Part shown: positions 1,483 through 56,758 of the stretch, in pieces
Position numbering within the stretch: position 1 is the first letter of the stretch
How the letters are laid out: every line of letters begins with the position of its first letter
DNA from: Amphiscolops sp. MND2022
Lineage: Eukaryota
DNA length: 64,000 bases
NCBI GenBank assembly: GCA_964187785.1
Contig: CAXLNC010001225.1
Coordinates: 1 to 64,000, forward strand
Direction: 5' to 3'
The notes under the pieces: generated by a model
The model's database searches: none
Told to the model about the DNA's origin: nothing
Seen by the model: only the letters and a program-made list of their open reading frames with translations
Translations under genes and position numbers: made by a program

Positions 1483-2130
1483 CTACCCGAAATTTGATTT
1501 TGTGGAAGATTTTTTTGTTTTGTTTCTATAAAGAAGGACAAGATGAATGTCATGGTCATCCCTACATTCTAATGAGCTTAATGAGCAGTCTCTAGATTGG
1601 GGATGATTGTTTGAATTTGATTGTACTCTACATTTAGTATTTTCCCATACACTTTGTTGTTTATTACCTTCGGTGTTCCTGCTCAGTCTACTAGACCTTG
1701 AGTCCACATTTGCCCCTAACCCACTATTTTGACCTGACAATGAATTTTGGATTGAAGGAAGGATCGAATCATGAGTTGCTAAGTTAATAGATTCTGTAAT
1801 TTGTGTGTCCAAATTCCTTTTCAGTTCATCTATTTTCCTATTCATTTGGTAAGATATTTCCTCAGAGATGAGTCTATTAGTTTCCATTGTCATTTCACAT
1901 CTATTTCTATCTTCTGAAGTTAATAACGTCCTAAAATCCTCACAATTTCTGACCATGTCGGTCCTTGTCCCATTAGACCTTGAGTCCACTTCTACATTTT
2001 CATTCAGATCAACGTCTGATTGTTTTTCTGGGTAATTTCCCAACATTACATTCATATTTTCAAGATCAGACAATACGTCTGATTGCCTCGCTCGCTTTTC
2101 CTTAGCTTTCTGTTTCCTTGTGGAAGGCAT
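1483..2130 (-). CDS. U5-encoded Gag N-terminal leader in the 3' LTR, reading out into flanking DNA
   Basis: 215-aa ORF MPSTRKQKAKEK... Its first ~194 codons lie in the LTR and match the Gag N-terminus at 16281; the last ~21 codons come from the flank beyond 1548. Confidence 0.7.
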   Translation of the reverse strand: MPSTRKQKAKEKRARQSDVLSDLENMNVMLGNYPEKQSDVDLNENVEVDSRSNGTRTDMVRNCEDFRTLLTSEDRNRCEMTMETNRLISEEISYQMNRKIDELKRNLDTQITESINLATHDSILPSIQNSLSGQNSGLGANVDSRSSRLSRNTEGNKQQSVWENTKCRVQSNSNNHPQSRDCSLSSLECRDDHDIHLVLLYRNKTKKSSTKSNFG

Positions 2131-3124
2131 TCAGAAGGTGTTGACCCAAACAATAATTTATTGTTTGTAGCAATTTTATCAACAACTGAACAACGTATAA
2201 ATGAGAACTAATATCATTATTTGAAATAACACTGACAAAGTACAGGTGGACGTTGAGTACAAGAATGAACAAATTATTGCAAATAATCACTGATTGAGAT
2301 TTTGGTGTGAGTATAGTTTCTCGAATGTTTGTCGGTGACCTGTGGTCCCTGTATATATAGTTAGGATAGTATGACACGCAAAATTGTTGCCATCACTTTC
2401 CCAAAATAGCATCTTGTCCTGACGTCACAATGACGCAACGGACGTAAATCTAAAATTAGCACTTCTTTGTGGGCAAGTAGGGCTAAGTGCTAAAAATAGC
2501 AACAATTGATAGACTCAAAGGCTAATAGCACATCAAACGACTAAATGGGGGGGGGTTAGCCTACCAATCATCACTTTCATGATGTCCTAAACTATATTAT
2601 TTACATAGTAGTAATAACACGTACATGTAGTGGACTGTCGGTCCAAAGCAACTAAGCGAGACTAATGGTGAACAAAGCACTGCAATATGATTGGTTAATT
2701 GGTTAATGTACCACACGTCTAAGTTGGCCAATGCTGACTACGATTTGAACACGTTTCCAATTAATCGTACAGTTTGCTTTATCGTTTACATTTCTACTGC
2801 TATTCCAATTTCAACTAACTGGTTTACATGATAAAGTATACTATATTACATGTATAATCAAACTAATATAATGTACAATGTTAGCTCCGGATAGGTAATG
2901 ATTTGACTATACGTCTATTGTAGACAGGTCGACCTAAGGTCCATAAGCTAATAAGTAATTGGTTAAAACAGTACATAAGAACAGCATAATAATAAGGGTT
3001 GTTTTAAATGTACTAGCAGTCTCCATACTTTAAAGTGGCAACACTCCAGTAGGGAGGTATAATCCGTTGGCTTCATTTGGGGCTACTTGGTAATTGTTTC
3101 CATCGCAGGCGGCAGTCTGCGACA
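1548..3124 (-). repeat. Element A 3' LTR (1577 bp)
   Basis: Near-identical to 15699-17276: about 15 differences counted by eye, including one G-run length change. TG/CA termini. Confidence 0.96.
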
Positions 3125-3851
3125 GTCCCCGGGGGACGAGAACGAAAGCGCCCGCCTGCATTCCGGCTTGAAAAGCGTGTCGTCGTCGTTGTCTTGTCTC
3201 GTATGACTCTCCGGCCCGATGCGTCTTTTCTAAGTAGTTGAAAGTTACCTCCTCTTGGATTATGTCTGCCGATTTGCCACACACCAAACAGTCTCCATGT
3301 TGTACAAGGTTCTGTTCGCCACAGTGTCCGCTCATCTTTACCGCAACTCCTGTGATATGCGAATATGGAGGCCAATCGATTTCTTCTTGGCCCCAGTGGG
3401 GCATCTCAGGGGCGGGTCGATAACCTCGTTCATGTGGTGGCGGCGACTGAGGAGATTCCGGCAGTGGTTCTAGTTTACTGCATCCTGCTATTAGATGACT
3501 GTCCACGACGGTTGGCCCTCCAGTCAGTGGTTGTAATCCCAGTACTAGATCGATCAACTCGCTGCTGGGTTCAGAGTTGAAGTAAGATCCTTGACTACAA
3601 AAGGTACTACCTTGAGATTCGCTGCTTGCACAACTGGATAAATCTAGTGTCATGCCACGTCCTCCCATTTTCTTGGGGATTGATACTGGAGTTTCCCTGT
3701 AACACGCGATTACCTCAATGTCGCTGTCACGGTCTGGGTTCTCTCCGGTTTCAGACAACGGGCAATCCACCTCCATTTCATCGTCGGATGACAGATATGA
3801 GAGGCTCACCAGTGGTTGGATGAGCTCGTCGACAGAGAATTGCAAAGACAT
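3030..3851 (-). CDS. Element A sense accessory ORF of unknown function, ending inside the 3' LTR
   Basis: Uninterrupted 273-codon ORF with an acidic/Pro-rich N-half and a C-x7-H-x2-C-x2-C cluster (HCGEQNLVQHGDCLVC). It crosses the LTR boundary at 3124/3125. Confidence 0.7.
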   Translation of the reverse strand: MSLQFSVDELIQPLVSLSYLSSDDEMEVDCPLSETGENPDRDSDIEVIACYRETPVSIPKKMGGRGMTLDLSSCASSESQGSTFCSQGSYFNSEPSSELIDLVLGLQPLTGGPTVVDSHLIAGCSKLEPLPESPQSPPPHERGYRPAPEMPHWGQEEIDWPPYSHITGVAVKMSGHCGEQNLVQHGDCLVCGKSADIIQEEVTFNYLEKTHRAGESYETRQRRRHAFQAGMQAGAFVLVPRGLSQTAACDGNNYQVAPNEANGLYLPTGVLPL

Positions 3852-5133
3852 CTCGGCTAGGTGTCTATTGAGAAGCAGTTTTTTAGCTATTTTGCTAGGT
3901 TAAGTGATCGGTAGTGACTGAATCTGATGAAAATTGTAAGTTGAATGATTCTTCGATTTTCACCCTTTTGCGAGATTTCCTTTCAGTCGGCGGGGAAATC
4001 AATGGCGGGTTAAATGGAGAACTATTCCCAAACATTTCCTTTTCTGGAGCCTCCGTAATTTTGCCTCTCAATTTTGCCTCTTTATTACTCCTAGCGTGAT
4101 GGTAGCCACTCGTTCTGATAGCCCTTGAGGCCTCTTCAAGTGTTTACCGTTATAAATTAGGTGTCGTTAATTACTAGCGAAAGTGTTTATTAACACTAAT
4201 ATCCAGTCATCAAAGACTACCGGTCCGCCTCAACAAATGGCGACCTGCTAGCCAATTAAATTCTAGTGGTAAATGAGTGAATTTCCTGAATGAAAATTTT
4301 GAATGGCTGAGTGAAATAATGGAAAATGATGAAACTAATTTGAAAATAGTGGCAAAATGATGTACTAAAGGTGGTAGATGGTAACAAATAAATAAGGACT
4401 ATAATCTAATCAAATAGAAAGTGTACTTCTCTGGCAGGTTCGGTAACACTTCATATCACAATAATAACGCAGTTTTAATTGATATCAGATAAGTAGGTAA
4501 GTTAGCGTACATGTAGCCACGACGTCCTTTAATTCATAATGGAATAATAATTATGTAATTAACCGTCTTGACAGTCGAAAGTGGTAGTGATAAGTAAGCA
4601 TTGTGTATATTGACTACTAGTCCGTTCAACGTAAACCACTGTAAACCAGTGTTTCGCAGTAGTGAGTCTTCTATTGTTTGAATTAAAGTGCAACAAATCA
4701 GCTCCCCGTTTCCACGTTTGAATTGTTATTAATCTTCAATTCACATTTTACCAAGCCAATTTGGGTTACTCCCGTCTTTGTAGCAGTATCGCCCACAGAT
4801 TGATAATCTTTAGACTATTAGTCTGTCCGACCTACTTCGACCTGAGTTCACATATTGCCTTTGAGCTAGATATTCCAGTTCTGTTGCATTTCAACAAGTT
4901 CACCTGTGTGACGCAAGCATCAATCTTCCAACTTTGCAGCTGTAGCCTGAATTTCAAATTCTGCGTGTCAATTTGGACAAACATCAGGTTGGTTTTTTTG
5001 AAATGGTTTGTCAATTTTGAGCTTGATCAGGGCTTTCCATTGACTTAAGGTCACTTCCTCCATCGTGAAGTATTCAGCCGTAAGCGTGAACATAAAATTA
5101 ACTTGCTTTCTAAAGACTCTCTAACGCGATAAG

Positions 5134-8100
5134 ATGGATTTCTTTAGCGGAAGTGGATCGCGAAAATTTATTTCTTTCCGTTTAGACAAAGAAATGGACG
5201 GCCAACCTAGTCAAGACGCTACTGAGATTATGGAATTCGATACTCCTCAAGCCGCTAAGGCACCGGAACCCGAGGTCACAGAAGTACCAACGGAGAAAAG
5301 GTCATTGGTTGAACTGTCATCAACCACTGATACGGAAAGTTGTGAAGCATATATCAGCCGGACCGTTGAACTATTGGCCAATGTCGAGCCTACTGCCACA
5401 AACCCAAACAATGAATCTCCTGACGAGGTCAAAGCCAGTACAAGTGACCCACTTGCAGTCACTCCTGGATTGAATGAATTACTTCCCAATGAAGAAGTGC
5501 CTGAAGGTGTCCCTAGAGTTGTGTTTTTAGACAAACCTGACGAGAAAAGCACCCCTGCAGTAACAACCCCTGAGGGACAGGACGAGCTGGTTGGCCCAGA
5601 CCAAGGTGTAGGAGTTGTCTCCATTGCCAGTACAGTCGTTCAACAGGAACAAGCGGAGGAAGAAACAGCCGAGAATATTTCGCATGATGAGCAGCTGTTC
5701 AACCAAGTCCCCAAGGACTACCGGTCCCAAACTGACGAAGATACCTGTTTTGGAATGGAAACTGACACAGGTTCATTGGCGCGATCTACTCTTGCTCAAG
5801 CCCTCTATCGCCCTGCTGAGGTCCAAAACATCGTTTGTCCCGGAGGCTCTAGCAGTGAGACCGTACCTTCGGAGGTACGAAAGGATTCAGACCCAAACCC
5901 ATTATCTGCTACTAGTAGGGACATAATAAAACAGTGTTTTACTGAGACCAATCCAATTTGCCTTGATCCTGGACATCCCGTCGCCGCGTTCAATCAGGAA
6001 CAGATTACCAGCATCCTCAGGATCGTTGCTGACGAGAGTGCAAGGGCTTCGTTTGAGATGTTAAACAGTGTTGTTCAGCGGGCGAGCAGGCTGAATTTGG
6101 GCAGCAATACTAAGACTAGGGCTCATCGTCCTACTCGTTCTGTCTCCGGGATAGATACTGGCACGGATGTCGGAAGTGTATCTGCCATTACGTTTGACCC
6201 CCATAGGGACAACTCGAGCATTGGGTTCACAAGTGAGGCAGAATCGCACCCAGACTTCCAGTCAAGCGTTACTTTACCAACACCGCCTACGTTAGGAGAT
6301 GCCGGTCTTGTAGACCTTGGGTCTAGAACAGATTCACCAGCCATATCTAGTCCTGGCACACAAACTCTTGCTGCAGTAAGAAAAGAAGCAATAAACGAGC
6401 AGAGGCAAACGTGTAAATGGGTAGCTACTCGAATCAAGACTAGCGGACAAGGACGACCCAGGAGAAGAGTTGAGTTGGTAGAGTCATGAAGGAGGAGTAT
6501 TTTGAGTCTATGCCATGGACCAGAGTTTTCGTGTCTGGTCCAGTTGACCCTCGATGGAACAAGCACAAAATCTACTGCCAGATTTGCAAATGCAACGTTT
6601 CCATCCGAGCCAAGGGTCCTAAAGAGATCTTGCGACATTATTCGACTGAACGTCATCTCCGAAAGGATCAGCGTTGGAGGTATGAAAACCTCACAATTGA
6701 AGACCCTCTTACCAAACGGCTGCGATATCAAGTCAGGGGAAGAGATGGTAGAGTTCTTACTAATTACCAATTGCAATTAGGACTACCTCATTTCATTGAG
6801 AGCGAGTTGGTTGACATTGGCACTAAGCTACCATTCTATGACGACGCTATGGCTGGTAGAGACTACATGACATCCTCTCCTCAAAATCGTGCTAGGATAC
6901 AGATATCTGTGCTTGGACACTTCCTCCCTCTGTCTGGGGATATCCAGGTCCTACGGGCGTTATGGCAACAGATCGGTACAGCAGTCAACCATCAGGCGAT
7001 CTTCAGTGACATAGACTGGGGTACTGCCAGACTTTCTGTGAGTAATCTTCTGTTTTAACTAGGCTCTTTGCTTTCATACGAACGTAGTTTTGTGACTTCG
7101 ACCAAATAGGCCGTCAATTGTAATCTTTCCACTGCTACTTAGCGTTTATCCGCTATCTTGTACTCCTTACAGGTTCTGTTATAGGTGTTGTTTCATCACT
7201 TGTTTCAACAAATTATCCCCATCCTTGGTAACGAAATCCTCACCGCAGGGCAGTATTCAGTAGAGTTCGAGCCACAAGGGGTATTCCTACTGCTTCATCT
7301 TCGATTTTGGAAAGCCAACAGACTGTGCCGTGTCTACATGCTGAGGACCGGTAGGGTCTATGGACAGACTTCCGCTGAGTTGCATCTAGTGGCTACACTT
7401 CTCGCTGCAATATCCACCGAAGCTGATCTGGTTTGTTGTTCTGGAGCTACCCACAACCTTGTTCAGTTGCTAGATCGAGCGCCTTTTAGTCGACATGGCG
7501 TCCAACGACCAACGCTGTTCAATGAAATTACCATCAAAAAACTGATGCACAAAGACAGTTACAGCGTGTTTGGACGAATTGAGTTCTTTTCCGTTTTGCA
7601 ATACTTAGTCATCTGTCTTAGCGGCACCCTGCAGATGGAATGGACTTTGTTTACTCCAGAATTAACCAAGGTTAGACCTTTGGAATATTCTCCTTTCATC
7701 AGGTGCGGTCCCTACTCTGCTTCAGTGTAGTTCTTTTCTTTTTAAAGGCAATCAAAACTGGCAATCTTGATGTATCTTCAATTCCTTCGTTGTGCCAAGA
7801 GTTGATGGCCCACTGGAAATCAGTGACGGGGTTTTTAACCGCTCACGCTGCTCAACAACAGATGCAGGGAGTCAGAAACCAGGTAAGTCGCGATTCTTCT
7901 TGTATACTCAGGGTCGGTAATAAGGCGTTCCTACTGCAATCTTTTTTCTTTCAGCCCCAAAACTTCGAGTGGTCGGTAATTCATGACGAATTCTTCCCTT
8001 GTCGGCTTGAGCTCTTCGGAAAATTGGTGCGAGATTGTGAGTACTTTCCTATAAATTTGTATTCGCAAAACTCTCTATTGGGATTGAGTACTTTGATATG

Positions 8101-9381
8101 GTATTCGGCGTGGAATATATTCGGTTTTCTGGAATCATCCTATGAGTGTCCTTAGTTGCACCAGACTTTGATTATGTGAACGTACTGTGTACTTAGCGCG
8201 ACTACTGATCTCATATTGTCCCAATTTATGTTCCAGATACTACCAACTTCTCTCTCAGTTTGAGTGGACGTCGAGACAGGGCCTTCTACTCCTTCCGGCA
8301 GCTCTGTTTGTATCTCCGTAAACTGGCCAAGCTCGTCGTCATGCCATCTGCCCTCCCAGAAGAGGATGAGCTGGCTTCGATTTTGGATCTGGACGTCATG
8401 AAAGCACCAGCCCTGAGTGTGACAGTTTTCCTCAATCGTATGAAGTTTGGTGCTAAGTTGGACCATGCTTGTAAACTGAGGGCCGAACTAGAGCAACATG
8501 ACCAGAAAGGAGAGAAAACCACTATTGCCGAGCTTAAGGATAAGGCAAAAGAAGATTTCGGGAGGTTAGCCAGAAGCTACACTACTCATTTATTCAAAGA
8601 GACTCTAGGCCACTTTAACTTCACCACCAACATAGCTCAAGGGTTGGGCAGCTTTGACCTTGAGATTATGTTGAAATCTCCTTTGACTTTGGCTACCCGG
8701 TGTTATAACAATCTGTTTACTACATTCCGACTGCGCAATTATTTCACTCTCGACCAGGAGTCTCAAGCTCAAGAGGAATATGTATCCTTCATTGATGAAA
8801 TGCGGCTGAAGTTTGCTGAGTTCGACCAACCTACATTGTTAGTTCCTGATACGATTGATTTCCTTATGGAACAAACTACTCTCGCTACCCGGCCCCTTCT
8901 ATTGCAGAGTTTCAAGTTGGCCTGCCTATGTTTAGATGAGCCATTTCGTCCTTTGCCTCCAGTCAAGTTTAGTTCTATTAACACTGAAGATCCTACTAGT
9001 AAGTTGGTTGACGTCATCCTGCCGGTTCAGTCTTTCTTTAAGCATGTGGTTAATTCTATTGAGTCTGCTACTTCTGACGCTTCCATTTCCGAGTTCCTTG
9101 AATTGGAATCTTCCTTTGGTCGAAGTGCTTTAAGCGACACATACAATCCGTGGGTAGGACTGGACAATTTCGGAAAGACCACTATTTTGTCGAAGTTGGA
9201 CCCTGGAAACAAATTCAGGAGTGCAGCCGGAAAGGAAGGGATCACTAAGTCTGCCTCTGTCCAGCAGTCTCCTAGTACTTTGCAATATTCCAAGAAGAAT
9301 GTTCGTCCGACTACTCTGCTCTCTGACTCTGAAGTTTCCCAGGCTGCTAAAAGTCTACGCCAATGCGGCAGTAAGGACTAA
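5134..9381 (+). CDS. Element A antisense spliced accessory gene (~1250 aa): acidic disordered N-terminus, C2H2 zinc finger, hAT-transposase-like body
   Basis: Exons 5134-7037, 7185-7670, 7748-7882, 7955-8036 and 8237-9381 are joined by four GT-AG introns with compatible phases. There is one frameshift near 6470-6486. Zinc finger CQICKCNVSIRAKGPKEILRHYSTERH. Confidence 0.8.
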
Positions 9382-9544
9382 TTGTATATAGTGTACATAT
9401 GTACACTTCTAAACTTTTGACTTTGTTGTAGTTATTTGTATTTTATTTGTCTTTCATTATTGTATTCATGTTGTAGTTGAGTCTAAAGTCAGATTGGTCT
9501 CAGAGTCAAAATAGTAAATGGGGACCGGCAATAAATGTATCTGG

Positions 9545-10990
9545 CTAATATCTGTATTCATCAGTAAAGTTGGGGGTGGGGTTAGGTCGTAGGTTGTATT
9601 TTCCTCCCCTAGGGCTTTCATTTTCTACAATCATATCATCATTTTCGCTTTCTAATACTTCGGGCACGATAGTATCGCTCCCCCCTGAAGAAGTTTTATC
9701 ATCATGAAAAGATTGAGCATCATCTTCTTGTGATATGGGGTTGGGGAAAATTTCGTCAGTCGTCGAACGTCCCGTGGACCGGAGGTCCACATCTGTTAAA
9801 ATCTGGTCGGGCTGTTCTACAGCCTCGGTATCATTACTACTATTAGTAGTTCGTTCATGGTTCGGATCATATGTTCCGTTACGATGATCAGCCTGTAGGT
9901 CGCCAAAATTGGTTTCCCATGTGATAACGTATAGGTCATCTTGAGGAATAACAATTTCTTCATCCGGCTGTAAGTTGCCTTCGGGTCGTTCGTCACGTAA
10001 CGTGACGTTGGGTTCATATTTGCGGAGGCGAATGCGATGTAAAATTTGTGTCTTGTTAGAGTTGAGTTTGCGCACGATATAGTTTTCGTTAGGCAAGGCC
10101 TGTTCGATGACATAAGGGCCTATCCATCTAAATTCTCTAAATGGTATTTTTGATCCTTGATGATCCGCTATAGGTTGTAGTATAAAACAATAATCGTTTT
10201 GCTTTAAAGGCGAAGCTTTAGCCTTCCGGTCGTAATACTCCTTGTATTTTAAGTAAGATTGCATGATGTTCTTTTTCGTATTGTCAAGTAAAATTTGCGT
10301 TCGTCGTTGAAACTCTTCTGCAAAATCCGTCGTTGGTAAGATAGTAGGATTTGGATTGAGTCCTAATTTGTAATCGAGAATGTTGTAGGGTATTCTGCCA
10401 TGAAAAATCCTTGAAGGCTCACAGCCCAATGTCGAATGATATGATGTATTGTAGTTTAATACTGCTAAAGGTAAGTATTTATGCCACTGACGTCTGTACG
10501 CCCCGGAGGCCATTTTGAGATTTGTTTTGAGACTTGCATGAGTTCTCTCCAATTTCCCTATGGTCTGCGGGTGTTTTGTGGTCGCACAACGAATCTGAAT
10601 TCCCAGTATTTGCGCAATTTCAGCTACTAACTTCGAAGTGAATGCAGATCCTTTGTCGGTTATCAAAGTGGTCGGCAAATAGGTGTGTTTGGTCATTATG
10701 TCGATAATAACCTTGGCCGTATTTGCAGCTGATGCGTCAGCGACTGGATAGGCGAAAAGATATCGTGAGAAGACGTCCATAGCGGTAATAATATTCTCAT
10801 ATCCTCCGCTCGGCGGGAGGTTCGGTAGGAGGTCTATTTGCATTGCGTCTTCTGGACCTAAGGTCCATTCCGGTAGATTTAGTAGTTCAGGAGTTATCAA
10901 TTCATTGCTGATTCTCTTGTCTTTAATGCATGTTTCGCATCCATTTACCCATTTGCGGACAAGTTTGGCTATTCCCGGGTAGTAATATTT
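9545..10990 (-). pseudogene. pol: Element A integrase (HHCC, DDE core, long acidic C-terminal tail)
   Basis: H-x5-HPG before the stop at 10994, then CETC, QIDLLP, ITDKGSAF and IGKLERTH. Separated from RT-RH by a stop or frameshift. Confidence 0.93.
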
Positions 10991-10993
10991 ACA

Positions 10994-13320
10994 TCATATT
11001 TCTTGGAGCATCTTGGCAATGCCCGGGTGTCGATTTGCCTTTCCGTGGAGAGATTCAAGGAGTTCATTTACCAGGTGTTTAGGTAAGAGTATTTGATTGT
11101 ATTTGACGTTTCCTGTTTCATCATAGTATTGTCTGGTGATGATGTCATTTTGAATGGACAGGCGGTCCAGCTGACGTAGGTAGTGTTGGTATCTAACATC
11201 TTGTATAAGGGTTGTTTCAGAGTACTCTTCCTTTTGTAGTTTGAGTTTAAGTTGTTGAAGGATAACATCGTTATTTTGTTCTATGGCTACCGTGTTGATG
11301 TTAGTCAATTTTTGACAGACTGAGAGTTTTTGTACATTGCTGTGGTGGGTGTCAAATTTTTCAAATGAGATATCTGGTGACTGATGTGAGGGGTTTTCTC
11401 TTGCCAGTTGCTTTCGTTGCCAGATTTGTTCTTCAGTTTCATCGTCATCGTCGGTGTAGTATATTTGCTCTTCCTCGGCGACTCCGGCCGATTGGACATG
11501 GAGTTCAATTGGTGTTGTTGGTATATCTTCACGGATTCTAAGAATCAGCTTTTCTTTAGGAGAAATTTCCAGACGGGACAGGTAATCCGCGGCTGTGTTA
11601 TTCTTGCCGGGAATGTGGGCAATAGTGAAATTAAATTGTATTACATAGTCACAAGCGTTCCATAAGGATGGTGGAATAATTTTTGTTTGAAAAAAGCGAG
11701 TGACCGACTTATTGTCCGTTAGTAAAATGACCGGTTTTGGTGTTCCCCAGAAAATATGTCCGAATTCTTTGAAGGCGAAGAAAATTGCTAGGAACTCTTT
11801 GGCGTATATGGACATCTTGAGTTGTGCGGGACTGAAGGTCTTGTAGCCGTAGGCCACCGGTGCGTATGCTTTCCTGGTTGATGTATATTTCTCCAGCGGA
11901 TCGTCCTCGATGAGAACTGCATATCCAGCCGCCGTAAAGCTCGCATCAGTCATCAGGGCGATTTGTTTGTTGGGCAAAGGTTGTTTAAGTGCTAGTTCAC
12001 AACATCGATCGAGAGCTTTGTTAATTTCAGAGAATCTGTCCAATAGGTCCGGGGTCACCATGACCTTCTCGTCTTTGGTGAGCAGTTTGAAAAATGGTGT
12101 TAGTTTTTCAGATAATCTAGGAATGTAATTTCGATAATAATTTAAGAATCCCAGGTAGCGCTGTAATGCCAACTTAGATTTCGGGAATTTTGTGTTTTCC
12201 AGAAAATTTTGGACTCGTGGTCGTTGTGGACGTACGCCGTCCGGAGTGATCGTTCGACCCAGGAAGTCGATTTCCGTGGCTCCGAAATGGCACTTGTGCA
12301 TAGTGAGCTTCAGGCCTGCATGTCTAATGCATTGGAAAGTGGCCCGGAGGTTTTTAATGAGTTGTTCTGCATCATTGGCGGCAATGCCGATGTCATCGAC
12401 GTATTGCGCGCATTGATCGGCCTTGATAACTTTGTCGAGGTATTCTCGCATAAAGCTAGAAAAGGCTGACAAACCACGGCTGAGTCCTTGAGCTAATCGG
12501 CGGTAGGCGAAAGTTCTGCTAGCGAAATTGAACGCCAACATCTCTATGGACCGTTGGTCCGCCATTGGCAGGCAATGATATGCCTGTGAGCAATCTAGCT
12601 TGCAAAAGAGTTTTTTGCCTGCCATGTGTTGAGCTGCATCACTAAGCGTACTGACAGGATGATTATTGTTGATATAGTCATCTGAAATAAGGTTGTTTAT
12701 TTTCCGAAGGTCAACTAATAGTCGCAATTTACCATTTGGTTTTTTTGGGCAAAAATGGGAGTGGCATATTTGGAGAATGGGAGTGTTGTGATAATCCCAT
12801 AGCGCTGTAGGAGGGCTAATTCAACAAGGATGTCTTCCTTGAGGTTGATAGGTGTCGGTAATTTTTGGCTATAGGCCGGGGAATCGTCTTTTGGCGTAAG
12901 TTTAACCGTGAATTCCTCGTTCATGCCAATGTCAAAGCGGTGTCTCGCAAATATGTCGTGGAATTCGACAAGTAAGTCCTCAATGCGTGCAATTTCATTT
13001 GGTTGCAGTGTCGAATCAGTCCAATCAAAGTTGGTCAAGAATTGTCGTCTGGACTCAGGGTCTTCCTGAGGATTCAGTTTTTCAAGTTCCTGAAGATTGA
13101 GTATTTCCTTCAGTATCCGTTTTTGAATGGGTGTGTGTTGTTGTGGATCCCCAGGGTCCTCTGGAGTAGGGAACCAATAACTTTCTTTAAAATCTTCTGG
13201 TTTGGAAGATTTAATCAAGCTGCTGACATAGAAAGCCGCATTTTCAGGATCATCCTGTAAGAGGTGCCATGTGGTCACTGGGTCGATGGGTTTAACGTAT
13301 TTCATCTGCCCTGGAGTCAT
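10994..13320 (-). pseudogene. pol: Element A reverse transcriptase and RNase H (frameshifted)
   Basis: LLVDLRKINN, KLDCSQAYH, LAQGL, QYVDD, LMTDAS, EFLA, LLTDNK and AADYLSR. Split between ORFs 12715-13320 and 10994-12727. Confidence 0.95.
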
Positions 13321-14572
13321 GACAGCGAAATTGGCAATGTGCGAACCGCTCTTGAGAGTATAAGGGTGGTCAGTGAAATTATTGAGCGGAATTTCTACTT
13401 GACCGGAGGTCAGTGTGACTAAGGCCGCACAAAAGGCGACATCGCCATCCTCAGTGAGTGCATTGCTCGGTTGGAGTGGTTACAGTGGTATCGTCGTACA
13501 TTTGGGATGTCAGTGTTACCATTTGTCTATCATTAGGGGGAATTGTAATATCCTCCTGGGTAGAGATAGGTTCCATGACATTAGTGTACTTGTGATCCGC
13601 CGTTTTCAATTGCATGGAGAAGAATGGGAAGTTTAGGACTCCCTGGCGCATGTCCAGTATGGTATTGTTTCGTTGTAAAAACGAAAGGCCAATCAATGGG
13701 CTTGTCAATTTTTCCATGACAATGAAGATTTCGTGAAATTCAATGTCACCGACTTCAAATTTTAATTCGACTGTGCTCTTTGGAGTTTCTAATTGCCCAT
13801 TGGCTACCATTATTGGGAAGTTGGGTGCAGGGCCCTCTTTGACAATGGACTGAGGGGCTAATAATCGGATTTTACGTAGATCAGCTTCAGGGATTGCGCT
13901 AGATAGTGCCCCCGTGTCTACAAGGCCATCTAATGTAAGTTCGCCGAAATCCATTGGAAAATAGAGCATTCGTCTTTTGTATTTGAGTCCGAGATTGGTT
14001 GTCAGCGGTACGTAGTCTGGTTCACATTGTCTGGTGACCAGTGTGTTCGTAAATCGTGCTTCGACTGCTGTAGTCAAAGAGACCTGTGGTCCCAAGCTGT
14101 CAAATTGGTGTCCCTGGGTAAGCTGTGCCGTTAGAGTGCAGGGATTGGGTTTAGTTTGCCAGGCATCGACTGATGCGTTCTTTAGAACGCTGTTAAGGGC
14201 ACTATCGGTTGCCGGACAATCAGGTTCAATATTTGTTGGATGTTTGGTGAAGTCGGTATAGAAGGATAAATGATGTTGATTGTAGAGATGGATGTCCCAG
14301 TAGGGGTCAATGCCGTAGTCCGGATCTGTATAATAGGGGTTATAGTCTGGTATTTCTGGAAGAAGACGGATGAAGCATGAAGTCGAGTCAAGTCCGTTGG
14401 ACCTAAGGTCCACAGTGCAGAATTGGTTAGGGATGTTTCTCATTTGCTGCTGCCAGTCAGCTGATGATATGCCCTTGAGTGGTGAATAATATTCAGTGTA
14501 GAATACAGTAGACGGATCAGAAATTATATATTGTCGGACGCGTAATTTTGTATCAAATTGGAGTCGTGGCAA
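13321..14572 (-). pseudogene. pol: Element A pol N-terminus: ~200-aa transframe region, aspartic protease, beta-rich linker
   Basis: LVDTGALSSA protease motif and LIGLSFL. Frameshift near 13451. Confidence 0.9.
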
Positions 14573-14577
14573 ATCTA

Positions 14578-14593
14578 GTTTTTTGGGTTTTTT
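14578..14593 (-). promoter_or_regulatory. Tandem -1 ribosomal frameshift heptamers (A AAA AAC x2) at the element A gag end
   Basis: Minus strand reads TTA AAA AAC CCA AAA AAC TAG. The -1 frame (KKLDLPRLQ) is the pol frame. Confidence 0.75.
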
Positions 14594-15680
14594 AAGATAG
14601 AAGTAGTTTGTTTGTTATTGGTTTCGGATTGGCTGGGAGACGTGTTGTCTGGTTTTGCTTCTTCGATTTTGAGGTTTTTGGGCTTGAGGTGGGCTCCAGC
14701 GCCTTTCCAACATCGTTCCGCCGGGTGGTTTGTTTTGTCGCACGTTGGGCATTTGGGATATTCTTTTTTAGTATCCTGCCCATCATTGCGTCGTTCTTCC
14801 TCCTTTCGTTTGAGTTTTCGGCATTCGTCTTTGACGTGGCCAGGTTTTTTGCAGTAATTGCAGGTGATATTGGGATCAATGCCAGAAGAGAGGAGGCCAG
14901 TTCCCGGTCGTGTCGCTGTAGGGGCAGTAGACATTGTAGGTACAGTAATGTCGTCACCTCCCTCAAGTCCGTTGAGTTCGAGTTCGCGTTCCAAATGGGT
15001 AACGATCTCTTCATATGAGGCATTCTCAAGCCGTGCCATATTGACCGATCTCTTGAGTTTGGGGGGCAGTTTAGCGTATAAAAGGCTGTCTATCATTGCT
15101 TGGGCATTTTCCCCAAACGCTTTCTCTGCTCCCTGGTTGAGTTCTTCGAGAAAATCTGGAAGTTTCATAGTGTTGGGGTCGAACACTAATTTATGCCATT
15201 TGTGTTTGGCAGTGGCTTGAGATTCCGGCTTGACGTACTTTCGTCGGAAGACCGCGAGTACGTCTTCTAGTGTCTGCCTATTGGCAGAGTTGATGTTACT
15301 AAAGGTTTGTAGTGCATTTTTACGTAGGAGGGAATGAAAGTGGTTAACTTTCATTGTTTCAGTCATTTCTGGTTGCATTTTTATCATTGTATGAAAAAGG
15401 TCTTCAAAAGGTTCGAATTTTTCAGATTTCCCGTCAAAGGTCAGTGTAGTTGTACTGACGGGTCGTACCATGAGTGTTTGTGGGGTTTGCTTATTGGTCA
15501 TGCCCGTTAGAACATTAGCAAGGCGTGTGAGGGGGTCTATAGCCGGACTGTGACCAATGGTCTCCTGGTCTTGGGGTGACGTAGTCGGAGACTGAGGATC
15601 TATAGTGTCTTGGCTTTGTGGGTTATCTCGGGATTGCGTGGGTCGTCCAGTAAGAAACTCAGGAACCATACGAGGGGTGG

Positions 15681-15698
15681 GGTTGGCTCCTGTCACCA
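15681..15698 (-). promoter_or_regulatory. Element A primer-binding site TGGTGACAGGAGCC (possibly tRNA-Leu type)
   Basis: TGG directly abuts the LTR terminal CA. One mismatch to the TGGTGTCAGGAG complement of vertebrate tRNA-Leu(CAG); the tRNA identity is inference. Confidence 0.8.
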
Positions 15699-17276
15699 TG
15701 TCATGGTCATCGCTACATTCTAATGAGCTTAACGAGCAGTCTCTAGATTGGGGATGATTGTTTGAATTTGATTGTACTCTACATTTAGTATTTTCCCATA
15801 CACTTTGTTGTTTGTTACCTTCGGTGTTCCTGCTCAGTCTACTAGACCTTGAGTCCACATTTGCCCCTAACCCACTATTTTGTCCTGACAATGAATTTTG
15901 GATTGAAGGAAGGATCGAATCATGAATTGCTGAGTTAATAGATTCTGTAATTTGTGTGTCCAAATTCCTTTTCAGTTAATCTATTTTCCTATTCATTTGG
16001 TAAGATATTTCCTCAGAGATGAGTCTATTAGTTTCCATTGTCATTTCACATCTATTTCTATCTTCTGAAGTTAATAACGTCCTAAAATCCTCACAATTTC
16101 TGACCATGTCGGTCCTTGTCCCATTAGACCTTGAGTCCACTTCTACATTTTCATTCAGATCAACGTCTGATTGATTTTCTGGGTAATTTCCCAACATTAC
16201 ATTCATATTTTCAAGATCAGACAATACGTCTGATTGCCTCGCTCGCTTTTCCTTAGCTTTCTGTTTCCTTGTGGAAGGCATTCAGAAGGTGTTGACCCAA
16301 ACAATAATTTATTGTTTGTAGCAATTTTATCAACAACTGAACAACGTATAAATGAGAACTAATATCGTTATTTGAAATAACACTGACAAAGTACAGGTGG
16401 ACGTTGAGTACAAGAATGAACAAATTATTGCAAATAATCACTGATTGAGATTTTGGTGTGAGTATAGTTTCTCGAATGTTTGTCGGTGACCTGTGGTCCC
16501 TGTATATATAGTTAGGATAGTATGACACGCAAAATTGTTGCCATCACTTTCCCAAAATAGCATCTTGTCCTGACGTCACAATGACGCAACGGACGTAAAT
16601 CTAAAATTAGCACTTCTTTGTGAGCAAGTAGGGCTAAGTGCTAAAAATAGCAACAATTGATAGACTCAAAGGCTAATAGCACATCAAACGACTAAATGGG
16701 GGGGGGGTTAGCCTACCAATCATCACTTTCATGATGTCCTAAACTTTATTATTTACATAGTAGTAATAACACGTACATGTAGTGGACTGTCGGTCCAAAG
16801 CAACTAAGCGAGACTAATGGTGAACAAAGCACTGCAATATGATTGGTTAATTGGTTAATGTACCACACGTCTAAGTTGGCCAATGCTGACTACGATTTGA
16901 ACACGTTTCCAATTAATCGTACAGTTTGCTTTATCGTTTACATTTCTACTGCTATTCCAATTTCAACTAACTGGTTTACATGATAAAGTATACTATAATA
17001 CATGTATAATCAAACTAATATAATGTACAATGTTAGCTCCGGATAGGTAATGATTTGACTATACGTCTATTGTAGACCGGTCGACCTAAGGTTCATAAGC
17101 TAATAAGTAATTGGTTAAAACAGTACATAAGAACAGCATAATAATAAGGGTTGTTTTAAATGTACTAGCAGTCTCCATACTTTAAAGTGGCAACACTCCA
17201 GTAGGGAGGTATAATCCGTTGGCTTCATTTGGGGCTACTTGGTAATTGTTTCCATCGCAGGCGGCAGTCTGCGACA
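15699..17276 (-). repeat. Element A 5' LTR (1578 bp) with TATA (16503-16510) and AATAAA (16308-16313)
   Basis: Direct repeat of 1548-3124. On the minus strand the order is TATATATA, then AATAAA, then the gag ATG at 16281. Confidence 0.96.
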
Positions 17277-17882
17277 ATGAATTCAATAGAGTGAGAGTAT
17301 TTTAAAGAAGAACAGCGAATAGGCAGTTCAAGGGCTGAGAGTGTGGCATAAAATGAATGAAATCAAATTTTGCCGTAGGATTACCAAAATCTGAACTTTT
17401 GAGTAAAGTTGCTTGATGTGAGAATTCCTCGGGACATTCTGAGGAACTTTCAACTTCTTCTTTAACCAATGCCCAGTTCTCTTCATTCGATTGAATTCGG
17501 GAGAAATGTCTGGGAGAAACTCTAAAACTTTGAAACCACTACTATTAGGTTCAATCTCAAACTTTCTACGGATTCTGGTCCCAACCTTCAGAATATTCGT
17601 TATACTCTAGAACTGAACCGCTTTGTCTTAGAACAAAAAAGCGGAAAGAAAATTGCAGAAAAAAGATAAACCACAGGCAGATTTATCCCAGATTCCCTAG
17701 TCGAAAATGATGGATCATTTTACATACTGCTGTTCGGCATGTCGGTAATATTAATTCTGAAGAAAAAATAGGGAGTTTTGGATCGCATTGCTCGTGGGTT
17801 GACACAGGATGTACAATCATTTTTAAATTCGTGCCTTTACCGAGACGACCACGTTGTTTTCACACTTTGGCTTCACTGCTCG

Positions 17883-18188: not shown

Positions 18189-21100
18189 TGTTACATTCGG
18201 GTTCATTCCGATTCATGACCTTACCAAGATTCGGTTCTAGAACTACAAACTTTTAGTTATATGTCTAGAATACCTGCTAGTGTTGATAAATACATATTGC
18301 ATCAATACTAAGTTAGATATTTCATTTACAGTACATTGATATCTACAGCCTATACCGATACCAAAGAAATTCTCTCTTAGTGACCTTTCTTTTCTTAACC
18401 ACTTAGTTTGTTAGAATAGAACATTGCACAGTCAGCCGATTTTTAAAGCAATTGAAACCTTCCGAACAAACCGAAACTACGGCAGAAAAGAAATCGTACC
18501 AAACCTCGAAACTAAAGCCACAGACGGAAATCCGGTGATTACACCGAGACAATGGCTGGAAAGATTCAAACAATTTACAAAACGGGAACACAAAATTGAT
18601 ATTACACCCTTACTCAAAAAAGAAGAAATAACTGATTCCGCTTGGGGCGCGAAAGAACAAGCAATACAAGAAGATTTGATCTTGGGAGTGGGACCGGAAG
18701 CACTCTTCCAGATAACCCGAGCAGAATATAAGACAGACCTGGACAGCAAAAAAATAAAAGACCTAATCCGGTTAAATACCGAATAATATTTACCGAAACG
18801 AAACACTTACCACGACCGAGGAGATTTTTTCTGAGCGAAACAATCAGAAGAAGAAACACCGGAGGAATTCTGGAGACGACTGATTGAAGTTGAAAAAGAA
18901 TGCAACTTCGGCACTATCTCAGCCGAAAAAATACTAATTTCCAATAATATGACTGCAATAACTTATGCAAAATTAGCTTGTAAATTTTGACTGTTTTACA
19001 CTATTTACTAACTACGCATTTTGACTGGAATTCACCGCGTTCATATTACACTGTGCTGCACCACTACACGAGTGGATTACTACAGTCTTTGACCAATTTA
19101 CAGTAATTGACTATTTTACCCAAAACACTATTTACACCAAGTGATCACTTTCCACTTTTGCGGGACATGTATCGTAATGAACAAGAAATTACGGGACAAA
19201 ATAATGGAAAGCAAAACACTGGAATTGAAGAAAATAATTGAACTGATTAAGTAGAACACATACGAAAAGAAAAATGAAAAGAATACAATCACGGAAGCGC
19301 TAATCTCATCAAAGGAAGAACAATCGATAATAGAAGAACCGATACAGAGAATGGAAAGATTAGGAACAAAACCGAAAAACAAACAATTCGGAAACCGACC
19401 GTGGAGATTTTGCAACGCACCAAATGAGTCACCAATACATAAATGTCCGCCACTAGAAGCAAACTGTAACAAATGCGGAAATAAAGGCCATTTCGCAAAA
19501 GCATGTAGACAAAGAACGTACAATAACCGAACAGTGAAAAGACTAACCGAAAACGAAACTCAACAACCGAGCAAATCAACTAGCGAATCAGAAGAAAGCA
19601 TACACCACATCAAAGAAGTAAGAACAACTGAAGAAAAGAACAAACACTACACGGCAACAATTAGAATAAACGGAGTGAAGAAATAAGTTATCAAAAACAC
19701 CGGACCACCAATAACCGGCGAAGGCCACCCGACGAAAGAATCATAAAACACGCCGAAATTCAGAAAATAACAAACCGATACCAAGGCGTAAATAAAATTG
19801 AAGTAAAAGTTCGGGGAAAAACTCCGGTGAATATCGAGTACGAAAAGAACAAACAGAAATTGGAAAACCTGATAACCGAAAGAACAGATATAACACCATT
19901 ACTCGGGTTGGACTGGATGAAAACATTCAAACTAACTATCGGAAGAATACAATTGGCCGAGAACAACCAATCAGAAAAGGAGAAAATCATCAATAGACTT
20001 CCGGACTTGTTCGAAAATAAGCCGAACATGGAAGAACTGTCAAATCAGATTTTGGTAGTAATAACACGCGACCGAACAATCCAACTATTCATTTCTAAAA
20101 CAGATTTAGACTACGCATACGGGCAAATGAAGTTATCCGAAGAAACTAGCCGACAATGCGTATTCGCATAAACTGGAGGAAAATTTAGTGGCTATTACAG
20201 ATTCAAAAAAGGATTTTACGGACTCGACGATATACCCACATTATTTCAAGAAACAAATGACTGAACACTCGGATACTGCACCTTAGCTTGGTTGGGCGAT
20301 ATAATAACAGTAACACGCGGAAACAAACAGGATCACAAAAAAAACTATTGGACGTCCTAAACAAGCTAGACAAAGCCGGTTACTGAGCTAGCAAACCCAC
20401 CGGAAAATACCAAAGAATTAAAATTATTTCTCGGAGCAATACAATACGTTGCAAAATTTCTAACGAAATTTTCAGAAAGAACAGACCGGCTACGGAAAAT
20501 ATTGAAAAAGAATGAAACATGGAATTGGGGAACCGAACAAGACGAACATTTCGGAAAAATAAAGCAGATGCTAACCGAAGGTCCGTGTTTAGCACACTAC
20601 GCAAAAGAGAAAGACAATATAGTAACAACCGATGCTAGCACAACCGAACTGGGAATATACTATGGCCAAACCAAGACAACGGAAACACAAAACCGATAGC
20701 TTACGGAATAGGTATTTGAACGATACCGATATTCCCTCGGTGAATTAAATTTACTGGCAGTAGTGTGGGGACTGGAGAAATTCCGATTTTATCTCTACAG
20801 AAAAAAGTTCACCTATATACGGATCACCAAGCCTTAGGACAATTAATTAAAAGAAACCGGAGTAAAAACAATACAGTGCGAAGTTAACGAGTTGGTTAGA
20901 CCGCCTAACGCATTTTAATATAACAATACAGCATATAGCTGGAAGCAATTCGAAATTTACCGATTATCTCACTAAAAATCCGGTGGGCGGAGCCACGCCG
21001 GAAAAAATTACGATGATAAATACGTAAAAAATGTACTTGCCGAACAAGCCGAACTGAAATTGAAAAACGGACAATTATTCGGGGACCAATCAAAACACAA

Positions 21101-23350
21101 CAAATGCACCACCAAAAGAATAAAGAACGATTCCGAAGACAAAATTGAGCACAAAACGGACCAATTACAAATGAACGGAATATTCGAGAACAAAAATCAC
21201 GTGAACGAAACCGAACAAAATACGAGAAAAACATCCGGGCAGTCTGATATTAGCACTTAGAAAGACAGTCAAACATCAAAAGTTGAAAATTCGACAAAAT
21301 GGACCGCGAAAACTTTTACCACTGGGGAGCCACCCGAGATCTAATGATATTATTAGAAGGAGAAACAACAGCCCGGAGACAAGAAGGTTGGTTGAACAAC
21401 GGAATACGCTATCACGACCCGGCACATTGAGACGCCGGTATGACCATCAGACGGAACGTACGGTTTTTGCTCCGTCCCGGCCGAACAAGCGCAGCAGCGA
21501 AGAAATTGCTGAAACTGATGCCGAACTAATCCGGAGAGCAAACAGACTGGGAGGACTTGAAGATGGACTTGAAGACGCTGATATCAAAAACAGCAATCGA
21601 CCCGAAGCTAACCCGAGTAAGAACCAGTATGCGCCGAGAAGACAGAGAAACCATCCCGGACGGCTACCGCACAGTTTTCGCTATACTGCCAATCAGGTGG
21701 GGCCTAGAATTCTTCGACGAACAAATCGTCGTACCCATTGACCTCAGACGGCGACTACTAGACATTCTACACTTCGGTCACTCCGGCATCACAAAAATGA
21801 CATCAGAAGCCATGCTATTCTGTTGGCCGAACAGGAAACAAGACATCGAAACGAAAGTCAAGGATTGCACAGCATGCCTAGCATCAGATAAAAATCTTAA
21901 TCATCAATTACCAAAAAATATTACGGAAAACAAGCAAACCTATCCGAACCCAGACAAGAAATACAACTTGAATTTACCGTAAAACTACACAATAAAAATC
22001 TAAGCGGAGAAACACGAATACTCATCGCGGTAGATAAATTTAGCAAGTGGCCGACAGCGAAAATCTATGAAACTTCGGAGACAAAAGAAGTAGCAAACTT
22101 TCTGATATATACAAAAAAACCAGAAAAGATAAAGTCTGACAACGGGGGAGCATTGATTTCAAAAGAATACCAACAAATTTGCAAAAATCGAAAAATAGAA
22201 ACAGAATATTGTACACCCCGAATGCATACCGGAAACGGAGTAGTGGAGAGAGCAATTCAAACAATCAAAAATCTAATAATAGGGATATGGAGGACGGACT
22301 CAGCCTAACGAAGAACGAAGAAAAACAGATGGGAGAAAACATAAAGTCACCAAAGAAGAAAGATTCTGTTAGATATCCATTTTCATTTGTCGAAAAAAAC
22401 TATAACAAAAAATCTCTAGAAGGGAGGTTCCAAAACAAAATAAAAACCGCAATAGGCGGAACTGAGAGCACCGTAGAAACGTAATTAACCGAAAATTCAT
22501 TTCGGGACCACTATTCAGACTGAAAAGAAAAAACGAAGAGAACCGGCGACCAATACCAACGGCGACATCAATCCGAAAAACAGGCACTGCCTCCGAGGTC
22601 TTGAAGGTAAATACGGCAGATGGGATGAAATACTCCGTGACATACTAAACGGAAAATTGAAGATCGTGCAGAACCGAAAGCAAACGGGAAGCGACACGGA
22701 AGAAGAAGACAACTATGACGATACCAAAGAGATGCCGGAAGAAATCGGGACACCAAAACCAAAAATATATGATACCTCCGAACGAGACGGACGATATGCG
22801 CCAATCCGGAGAAGCCCGGAAGAGGACGCACTACAACTGCATACCAACGGTGAGATATCGGGTGAGAACCTAAAAACAAATATAAGACGGTCCGCCCGAG
22901 ACAGTAAAAATCCGAACAGATACGGTACCATACCTTATACTGGAAATTTTTGGGGTTAGAAAAAAATGACTAAAAGGAGATTATATTTGTTACAGGAAGC
23001 CTGTGGACCCGAACAAAGCGAACACCAATGCCGGAGAAAATTCAAAAGCCAGAAGAAGAAACGCCCCCAGGACCCTCAAACCAGAAGTAAGGAGGAGAAA
23101 AGAAAGAGGGGGAAATGTTACGTTCGGGTTCATTCCGGTTCATGGCTTTACCGAGATTCGGTTCTAGAACTACAAACTTTTAGTTATATGTCTAGAATAC
23201 CTGCTAGTGTTGATAAATACATTTTGCATCAATACTTAATTAGATATTTCATTTACAATACATTGATATCTACAGCCTAGACCTATACCAAAGAGATTCT
23301 CTTTAAGTAACCTTTCTTATCTTAACCACATAGTTTGTTAGAATAGAACA
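18189..23350 (+). mobile_element. Element B: decayed 5.2-kb Ty3/Gypsy LTR retrotransposon
   Basis: 235-bp TG...CA LTRs at 18189-18423 and 23116-23350 (~17 mismatches). TSD ACGCC at 18184-18188 and 23351-23355. PPT GAAAAGAAAGAGGGGGAAA before 23116. Confidence 0.95.
18424..22959 (+). pseudogene. pol: Element B gag-pol remnants
   Basis: Fragments: CNKCGNKGHFAKAC knuckle, TPLLGLDW, SKTDLDYAYGQMKL (RT), VTTDASTTELG (RNase H) and LHFGHSGITKM...CTAC (IN zinc finger). Many stops and frameshifts. Confidence 0.9.
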
Positions 23351-30979: not shown

Positions 30980-31305
30980 GACGGGAGGACATAAAAATTT
31001 TGCTTTTCAAAATCGTAACATTTGTACACAAGGCGTGAATTTTGTGTTGTTTTTTGTCATTCATCTTTTTTGTTGCTCATTCTAATTCATGGCGGTGAAA
31101 AATTGATTTAAAATTTAGCATAAAATTGGAGCTTGTTCCTGATCAGGAACAAGCTCCAATTTTATGCTAAATTTTAAATCAATTTTTCACCGCCATGAAT
31201 TAGAATGAGCAACAAAAAAGATGAATGACAAAAAACAACACAAAATTCACGCCTTGTGTACAAATGTTACGATTTTGAAAAGCAAAATTTTTATGTCCTC
31301 CCGTC
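30980..31305. repeat. Perfect 326-bp spacerless palindrome
   Basis: The 163-bp arms are exact reverse complements, centred on CCTGA|TCAGG (31142/31143). Confidence 0.95.
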
Positions 31306-37498: not shown

Positions 37499-37516
37499 TG
37501 GTGACAGGAGTTTCAA
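37499..37516 (+). promoter_or_regulatory. Element C primer-binding site TGGTGACAGGAG
   Basis: Directly abuts the LTR CA. The first 12 nt are identical to the element A PBS. Confidence 0.8.
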
Positions 37517-38676: not shown

Positions 38677-38683
38677 AAAAAAC
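38677..38683 (+). promoter_or_regulatory. -1 frameshift heptamer A AAA AAC at the element C gag end
   Basis: Gag frame reads CCA AAA AAC TTC TGA. The -1 frame from 38683 is open without stops into the 38881-43623 ORF. Confidence 0.75.
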
Positions 38684-44605: not shown

Positions 44606-44772
44606 TATATATAGCATGCAAGACATTAGTTCGATCATTGGGAAGGAGCGGTGCAGCTCCGTTCATTCACCTTGGTGTAACCACAGGGCGTCAATACCAC
44701 TTTCCGAGACCTGTGGGTAAACCTCCGTGAATGAAACTCTGTCTTAATTGGTGGCTACGTGAGTAACCACCA
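44606..44772 (+). ncRNA. Candidate structured RNA downstream of an internal TATA box in element C
   Basis: TATATATA at 44606-44613 and an Inr-like TCATT at 44635. Stems at 44645-49/44656-60, 44662-70/44727-35, 44681-87/44710-16 and 44749-58/44763-72 (GTGA tetraloop). Confidence 0.4.
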
Positions 44773-49328: not shown

Positions 49329-49439
49329 AACGATAACAAACACACAAATCTGTAACACAAAATAAGCAAGTGAGGCCTTTAAATGGGAAGCATACAGTCG
49401 GTTGTGATCTGCTGAGGTTCAAAGTATTTTCCAACGATC

Positions 49440-56757: not shown

Positions 56758-56758
56758 A

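Follow-up and report, generated by a model that had tools for sequence, protein, structure and literature searches.

A spliced antisense gene of probable hAT transposase descent in a Ty3/Gypsy lineage of Amphiscolops sp.

How does a gene with introns persist within an LTR (long terminal repeat) retrotransposon, where did it come from, and for what is it kept? These questions are raised by a 64,000-nt stretch of DNA from Amphiscolops sp. MND2022 (GenBank assembly GCA_964187785.1, contig CAXLNC010001225.1, positions 1 to 64,000, forward strand), which is called the window below. Element A, a Ty3/Gypsy element of 15.7 kb (1548-17276, minus strand), carries on its opposite strand a spliced gene that sits between pol and the 3' LTR (plus strand, stop codon at 9379-9381). 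A second element in the window, element B, carries a homolog. In a prior, sequence-only reading of the window, the gene was likened to a catalytically dead hAT transposase. We report that the gene is maintained by selection in a lineage of Gypsy elements, that its product probably has a hAT ancestor, and that it may serve the expression of its own family.

Structure and maintenance of the antisense gene

The introns proposed earlier at 7038-7184, 7671-7747, 7883-7954 and 8037-8236 all run from GT to AG, and their removal leaves one stop-free frame of 803 codons from a frameshift to 9381. All four are confirmed by comparison among copies. In 45 other loci, hand-picked across the identity range, 338 of 343 splice sites were canonical: donors read GT in 168 of 172 scorable cases (GC in one, other dinucleotides in three), and acceptors read AG in 170 of 171. 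The intron sequences diverge among these loci, and intron lengths fall in all three phases. Two junctions are also supported by natural intron-less relatives that run colinear across them. The database proteins P0128, P0155, P0156 and P0013 pass from exon 1 to exon 2 without an intron (window exons 1 and 2 match residues 11-182 and 183-344 of P0128, gap-free), and exons 3 and 4 form a single exon in the family of element B. An alternative acceptor for intron 1, at 7172, was rejected; it creates a stop and is not conserved among copies. Introns in this orientation survive reverse transcription because the genomic RNA reads the opposite strand. This established logic, by which an LTR element can keep a spliced gene, had been invoked in the sequence-only reading and applies here, the introns having been shown.

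Exon 1 (5186-7037) encodes, in order, an N-terminus that is acidic, of low complexity and endowed with a small conserved block of helix, a basic stretch resembling a nuclear localization signal (NLS), a BED-like C2H2 zinc finger (C-x2-C-x16-H-x5-H; 6576-6656) and a helical linker. Exon 2 (7185-7670) holds a predicted RNase H-fold core, exon 3 (7748-7882) is helical and insertion-domain-like, exon 4 occupies 7955-8036, and exon 5 (8237-9381) encodes an all-helical C-terminal part. The single frameshift noticed previously is specific to the window copy. It stems from a small insertion near 6467 that is absent from all 19 other copies aligned, and the exon-1 frame is open for 642 codons in sibling copies.

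The earlier count of five exons and four introns was one intron short. Intron 0 (4988-5185, GT..AG, 198 nt) had been overlooked, and it holds the ATG at 5134 from which the gene had been read. It was found in 38 of 46 loci, at 191-205 nt. An in-frame ATG lies 16 nt ahead of the donor in 22 loci; in 16, including the window, this ATG is gone and another stands just past the acceptor (5194 in the window). The two forms are mutually exclusive, as none of the 38 loci has both ATGs or neither. Because the 16 loci form one lineage, the shift represents one compensated event, not 16. The likely start in the window is ATG 5194, for a protein of about 1,230 aa; the previous figure of about 1,250 aa holds from ATG 5134. 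Although it lies inside intron 0, the latter keeps the frame in all 35 copies for which a counterpart was matched (in two, a stop precedes the acceptor), so an unspliced form starting there may also be used. An N-terminal RVxF motif was discarded as an artefact of the intron-0 acceptor sequence.

Two copies were unusual in structure. One (L035:3922-4917) has a ca. 920-nt insertion within intron 3, with the exons intact and the copy otherwise near-identical. The other (L141) has a tandem partial duplication of the antisense gene, one unit of which has lost, through a deletion, the greater part of intron 1 along with the beginning of exon 2.

The gene is not restricted to a single copy, as had been considered; it occurs in hundreds. 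A search of the genome with exon 5 gave at least 108 scored matches at 59-100% aa identity (7,557 candidates), and a search with the finger region gave at least 150, with further subfamilies found besides. Neutral evolution across family copies was likewise not borne out. The ratio of nonsynonymous to synonymous substitution (dN/dS) in the core was 0.10-0.21 in 7 of 35 window-versus-copy pairs (dS 0.08-0.47), values that denote purifying selection in scorable pairs. It was 0.30-0.50 in the three closest pairs; in the remaining 25, dS was saturated and dN was 0.14-0.43. Against distant families, dN was 0.40-0.43 for the core and 0.06-0.11 for pol, i.e. the core evolves ca. 4-7 times faster. The finger exon is the best-conserved part of the gene.

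The distribution of the gene was assessed over 64 loci. Fifty-four carry it (52 antisense to the reverse transcriptase, RT; two without an RT in the stretch), and ten other RNase H-bearing loci do not. All 54 A- and B-type loci with a match lie in an LTR-element context. An RT tree, obtained by a quick search with long branches and a midpoint root, placed 48 carriers on one side and six non-carriers on the other (Shimodaira-Hasegawa-like approximate likelihood ratio, SH-aLRT, 99), 10 loci without a usable RT row being omitted. Because the carriers had been chosen via the gene, ten extra copies, none of them from the list of B-family gene matches, were chosen by RT alone. The last exon was found antisense in nine, and the tenth has N-terminal-like sequence by eye. 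Judged by RT sequence, the antisense gene marks one lineage. In public data, 560 clusters (50% identity) matched a finger-exon profile; the ten looked up are unnamed ENA proteins, and the same species is the probable source of some. None of 111 pattern matches in JGI metagenomes was confirmed, and a search for longer homologs of exon 5 found none.

Comparison of 20 copies along the element indicated that gag-pol, the antisense gene, and a sense open reading frame (ORF) together with U3 recombine as three cassettes. In copy L045, the LTR, sense ORF and pol are 90-97% identical and the antisense gene 60-77%. Copies L044 and L046-L049 have pol in common (85-98%) and different antisense-gene alleles; L036-L039 have the antisense gene and pol in common and differ in U3 and the sense ORF. 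In 6 of 35 copies, pol dS was 0.15-0.38 but accessory dS was saturated. Both selection and allele swapping were thus observed.

Predicted fold and candidate binding sites

The N-terminal half was modelled with AlphaFold on the homolog P0128, using a 65-row alignment that included the window's exons (predicted local distance difference test, pLDDT, 76; predicted TM-score, pTM, 0.44). The model features a confident finger domain (pLDDT > 90 at the finger), helices and an RNase H topology (beta1-3/alpha/beta4/alpha). In Foldseek, Hermes chains filled PDB ranks 1-11 (E values of 2.5e-3 to 2.2e-2 and a TMq of about 0.2), and HIV integrase came next at 3.5e-2. Rank 1 in BFVD was a viral hAT protein that aligned over the whole query (351 columns, E 1.2e-3, prob 0.99; next match 9.3e-3). 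Using VIA-align, residues 11-312 of the model were placed onto 21-426 of Hermes 8edg (Z 5.9, 170 residues, root-mean-square deviation 11.2), the only listed row that spans finger to core. Hermes 4d1q gave Z 6.3 with 108 aligned residues and a deviation of 4.5, for an RNase H fold that is common to many families. On this modelling, the protein probably descends from a hAT transposase. The hAT likeness claimed for the N-terminal part thus stands as the best fold match in two libraries but was not recovered by sequence or profile searches.

The finger ligands C, C, H and H are kept in 44, 43, 44 and 41 of 45 loci, and in every family a run of basic residues lies ahead of the finger. A finger-only hhalign match to a hAT finger had E 0.007, and a single homolog out of 34 matched zf-BED, at E 0.0099, short of the Pfam cut-off. 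Two putative catalytic sites were placed via VIA offsets and Hermes numbering; they are Glu and Ser in the window copy. Across copies, site 1 is E in 28, V in 11, I in three and Q in two (44 loci), and site 2 is S in 42, L in two and F in one (45 loci). The suspicion that the catalytic Asp residues had been replaced is borne out at these sites, with Asp in 0 of 44 and 0 of 45 loci. An invariant Glu after the dimer-like helix was sought and not found across the loci examined. Because the inferred sites lack Asp, the protein would not function as a hAT transposase, and its way of working may be that of a domesticated one. The CxxH and RW motifs that are invariant in the genome's hATs were not seen by eye at matching places, where the register is uncertain.

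The structural match to hAT concerns the N-terminal half of the homolog. Exon 5, in which a hAT dimerisation region had been recognised by eye, gave a weak model (pLDDT 52) with no meaningful fold match, Hermes being absent from the listed rows. Using hhalign, it was indeed placed best on the hAT dimer domain, yet P was 0.08 and the score did not surpass that of shuffled controls. No Pfam match to PF05699 (C-terminal dimerisation) was found in exon 5, and its likeness to that domain stands by eye only. The ESM atlas held no usable match for exon 2 or exon 5, and DUF4371 was not found in the genome by a search whose control was likewise silent. By eye, the protein resembles the resident hAT L089, which we take to be Tip/ZMYM-like, in its finger, linker and strand motifs as much as it does Buster and more than it does Ac-type elements; a profile comparison of L089 with the protein was not significant. 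The gene is not env-like: it is antisense, and no membrane helix was evident over exons 1, 2 and 5 (top 19-residue hydropathy 1.59).

Among non-coding boxes, the strongest conservation is seen in the first intron of the gene itself. The intron-0 boxes are nearly invariant at 30% protein identity, several are palindromic or inverted pairs, and a lower stem covaries; GGAAG(T/C) and its inverse are invariant. According to the available text of PMC10368747, the Hermes BED domain binds AAG(T/C), often in palindromic pairs. For this reason, the boxes are candidate DNA sites for the finger, an analogy that we treat as a lead only. The folding energy of intron 0 was not beyond that of shuffled sequences (mean z about -0.3, both strands, 28 sequences), a wobble-pair test favoured no strand, and Rfam returned no intron-0 match, just two chance-level snoRNA rows elsewhere.

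The sense ORF mentioned above (3030-3851, minus strand, 273 aa) runs with pol and extends into U3. It is kept in 20 of 20 copies compared (38-97% aa), and its dN/dS of 0.06-0.39 in 8 of 10 pairs (two saturated) denotes purifying selection. The product has an acidic N-terminus with a conserved D[ST]DI[EQ]V[IL] box, presumably SUMO-interacting-motif-like, and a Cys/His-rich C-terminal domain; it had no Pfam match and was not detected in the B family. Conservation of the codon type extends ca. 14 codons upstream of its ATG (window 3030-3899, minus strand), so that a further exon may lie upstream, or the ORF may derive from a longer RNA by splicing.

Possible roles of the gene

The following course of events is proposed. 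An ancestor of the Gypsy lineage would have acquired a hAT gene in reverse orientation. The AT-rich spacer between the two divergent accessory genes (3900-4987), whose last part is the antisense gene's 5' exon, is the likely internal promoter region; located between the gene and the 3' LTR, it would drive the antisense gene and, oppositely, the sense ORF. A candidate poly(A) signal, AATAAA (9530-9535, plus strand), lies downstream of the antisense-gene stop and just before the pol stop. The spliced mRNA would yield a protein composed of an acidic disordered arm, an NLS, the finger, an RNase H-fold scaffold and a helical domain, an arrangement that has been modelled in part. The finger would recognise and bind short DNA motifs of the element, for which the palindromic intron-0 boxes are the leading candidates; the acidic arm would either bring in activators or dislodge silencing. 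Selection would act via element copy number, keeping the gene in nearly all copies, and better alleles would spread by recombination.

We favour, tentatively, a hAT-derived protein without catalytic Asp that acts as a nuclear DNA-binding regulator and promotes the expression of its own family, either as a transactivator or by anti-silencing. Such a role is preferred on two grounds: a gene on which selection acts through mobile copies is expected to be of use to them, and a transcription or chromatin factor is what a dead transposase most resembles if its finger is kept and a long acidic arm is present. The suggested parallel with the Arabidopsis anti-silencing protein VANC survives in this guess as to role, but a family-specific mode of action is weakened by the absence of tandem arrays and by the swapping of alleles. 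A fuller version, in which an entire Gypsy lineage has domesticated a DNA-transposon enzyme for its own use and the dead transposase binds the palindromic boxes and forms, with a SUMO-binding second protein, an exchangeable counter-silencing module, is doubtful.

Several observations weigh against the favoured reading. The modelled P0128 is a homolog 27-30% identical to the window's protein, not that protein itself, and no Foldseek match for its model reached E 1e-3. Ranked by VIA Z, Hermes (5.9-6.3) was level with or behind integrases (6.5-6.9), ISCth4 of the Mutator type (7.0) and sugar kinases (7.1-7.2). No significant hAT match was obtained from Pfam, PDB sequences, the ESM atlas or hhalign profiles (7-21 hAT frames); hidden Markov models and position-specific scoring matrices run against 22 hAT frames and 462 controls were also not significant, the best matrix z being 4.1 (P0162, 1 of 9) and the others < 2. 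GGAAG(T/C) motifs are absent from the LTR and spacer of element A, and the intron-0 boxes could be an RNA element rather than DNA sites. Tight protein-LTR specificity is argued against by copy L045, whose alleles are only 60-70% identical between an LTR and pol that are 90-97% identical.

Five other explanations were considered. The same hAT-derived protein could act at integration, tethering or chaperoning the pre-integration complex and picking or protecting insertion sites via its finger. The gene is near-obligate in its lineage, its finger exon is the best-conserved part, and hAT transposases multimerise, which gathers BED fingers on DNA (available text of PMC10368747). Nonetheless, alleles swap across pol lineages (the 6 of 35 copies noted above), so there is no sign of co-evolution with integrase, and a gene with a transcript of its own acts in trans and does not have to travel with its own particle; we consider this role unlikely.

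Distinctly unlikely is a self-limiting repressor that binds the internal promoter or the intron-0 boxes, or an antisense RNA that damps the genomic RNA, keeping transposition tolerable to the host. Antisense transcripts have been proposed as regulators of LTR elements (PMC7264820), and top-conserved boxes in the gene's own first intron are what autoregulation predicts. However, the antisense transcript would end near 9530, without overlapping pol, copy numbers are very high, and the fast evolution of the protein relative to pol fits host conflict better.

There is a slim chance that the gene arose not directly from a mobile hAT but from another transposase with a finger and an RNase H fold (Mutator, P or Kolobok-like) or from a domesticated host ZBED-type factor. 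The Z of 7.0 for ISCth4 versus 6.3 for Hermes and the absence of a sequence-level hAT match are in its favour, and capture of a domesticated host gene would explain both the introns and the dead catalytic sites. On the other hand, the top Foldseek rank in both libraries goes to hAT, and the alignments with Hermes and with the viral hAT protein span finger to core; 54 of 54 loci are in an LTR-element context, with no single-copy host gene among the best 150 matches.

It is very improbable that the protein is a dominant-negative inhibitor of the genome's active hATs, kept for the host's benefit. Many intact hAT frames are present in the genome, and dead subunits could poison their multimers, but the protein is too divergent from the resident hATs for profile detection, and a benefit to the element accounts better for selection that acts on hundreds of mobile copies. 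Finally, a decayed, passively carried nested hAT insertion, to which the frameshift in the window copy and the deletion in that of element B might point, is refuted by the dN/dS of 0.10-0.21, by splice sites that stay canonical at 30% aa identity and by the compensated start-codon shift.

Element architecture, other window features and known systems

Element A has the hallmarks of Ty3/Gypsy elements. Its 3' LTR (1548-3124, TG..CA, 1577 nt) and 5' LTR (15699-17276) are on the minus strand and differ by 14 mismatches and one indel; they are bounded by the target-site duplication (TSD) ATGAA at 1543-1547 and 17277-17281. The primer-binding site (15687-15698, minus) adjoins the 5' LTR, its 12 nt being identical to those of element B. 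The gag frame (DUF1759, zinc knuckle; 14575-16281, minus) begins within the 5' LTR. Pol (9545-14614, minus) comprises protease (PR), RT with YVDD, RNase H (RH) and an integrase (INT), and is broken by stops and frameshifts in this copy. The Pfam domain order in both elements is that of Gypsy, gag-PR-RT-RH-INT. Within the LTRs, the 3' copy of the gag frame (1483-2130, minus) is open for 215 codons, and the 5' copy (15976-16281, minus) has a stop at 15976-15978. A short G/C palindrome, with no clear polypurine tract, lies before the 3' LTR at 3125-3145. At 15.7 kb, the element is below the 20-kb bar for "giant" elements in the available text of PMC6431247, and that earlier label was dropped.

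Element B (36485-51170, plus strand) has an intact pol frame of 1,652 codons, LTRs that are 97% alike and a TSD with one mismatch. Its antisense gene (45211-49327, minus) is 17-21% identical in aa to that of element A, with three junction positions in common. It has extra 5' introns, has lost ca. 175 nt including the finger, and is frameshifted at a GT-repeat microsatellite; B-type genes are themselves a family with at least 117 matches. The RT-RH region (40045-41400) has YVDD and is followed by a long acidic linker before the integrase. Its RT is 22-32% identical to other sampled RTs of the genome, and in the PDB it matched foamy Pol at E 5e-31 and Ty3 at E 2e-22, a weak ranking given the few Gypsy RTs held there. 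The gag frame (37282-37896) gave a sub-cut-off Pfam match to Stonustoxin_helical (E 0.002), likely coiled-coil noise.

Three further features were observed in the window. Positions 56020-64000 hold a tandem repeat with a 5,888-nt period, 99.8% alike, whose ORFs by eye resemble the capsid and neighbouring genes of Maverick/Polinton elements; two of these ORFs had no match in a Pfam scan. A perfect 163-nt inverted repeat without a spacer occupies 30980-31305. At 18189-23350, 235-nt direct repeats (93%) flank an A-skewed, decayed coding region that is possibly another LTR element.

The literature covered, which lay outside most subscription journals and Repbase, yielded no paper on a spliced antisense gene of hAT origin within an LTR element. 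The modelled DNA-binding finger, the candidate sites and the five introns, together with natural alleles that number in the hundreds and are exchanged by recombination as modules, make the domestication of one transposon by another, as well as element-encoded counter-silencing, testable in an animal-type genome. If the fuller version with the exchangeable counter-silencing module, called doubtful above, is true, this would be an animal retrotransposon anti-silencing system drawn from another transposon class, and it would explain the thousands of copies of the lineage. More such genes may hide in annotated genomes, because exon-wise sequence searches miss them.

Among known systems, foamy viruses have, in the interval from pol/env to U3, a pair of accessory ORFs (tas/bel2), of which one enters the LTR, as well as an internal promoter. 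Here, too, there are two accessory ORFs, one extending into the LTR, and the element B RT is best matched in the PDB by foamy Pol; unlike here, the foamy genes are sense-strand and not transposase-derived, and element A has no env. Hermes and other hATs present, in the same order as the model, an N-terminal zinc finger, a helical linker, an RNase H fold and a helical insertion. The present protein differs in having no Asp at the two inferred catalytic sites, an acidic arm of 400-650 aa, an LTR-element carrier and no detectable sequence similarity. Known domesticated hAT/ZBED factors include ZBED1/DREF and DAYSLEEPER.

VANC of Arabidopsis VANDAL elements resembles the present protein in being an accessory product of the element itself, for which trans action on element DNA is proposed; as described in the available text of PMC6719617, its carrier is a DNA transposon, and it acts in a family-specific manner that depends on tandem motif arrays. 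Here, alleles move between families, and element A contains no tandem motif arrays, just two-copy repeats of 11-13 nt. The plant mobile domain (PMD) is a chromatin-related domain common to extra ORFs of Gypsy elements, to DNA transposons (MULEs) and to host silencing genes (available text of PMC5418596). It is not a transposase core, whereas the gene here appears, from the model, to encode a near full-length transposase-like fold.

The closest counterparts in layout are the antisense ORFs of plant Tat/Retand elements (Grande gene23, RIRE2, Retand TRP28), which also lie antisense between pol and the 3' LTR in most copies (PMC7264820 and PMC11963269, available text). In placement and prevalence, the element A gene agrees with the Gypsy antisense extra ORFs termed aORF-3R. 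Grande has its own internal promoter and a nuclear protein of unknown function (same sources, available text). The plant ORFs are described as dissimilar to other transposable elements and of unknown origin and function (PMC7264820), and the word "intron" does not occur in the available text of PMC11963269. The gene of element A, in contrast, has five introns, about 1,230 aa, a predicted hAT-like fold and no TRP28 match. It is likely a variant of the antisense-ORF kind with a class II origin, i.e. one for which descent from a class II transposase can probably be traced.

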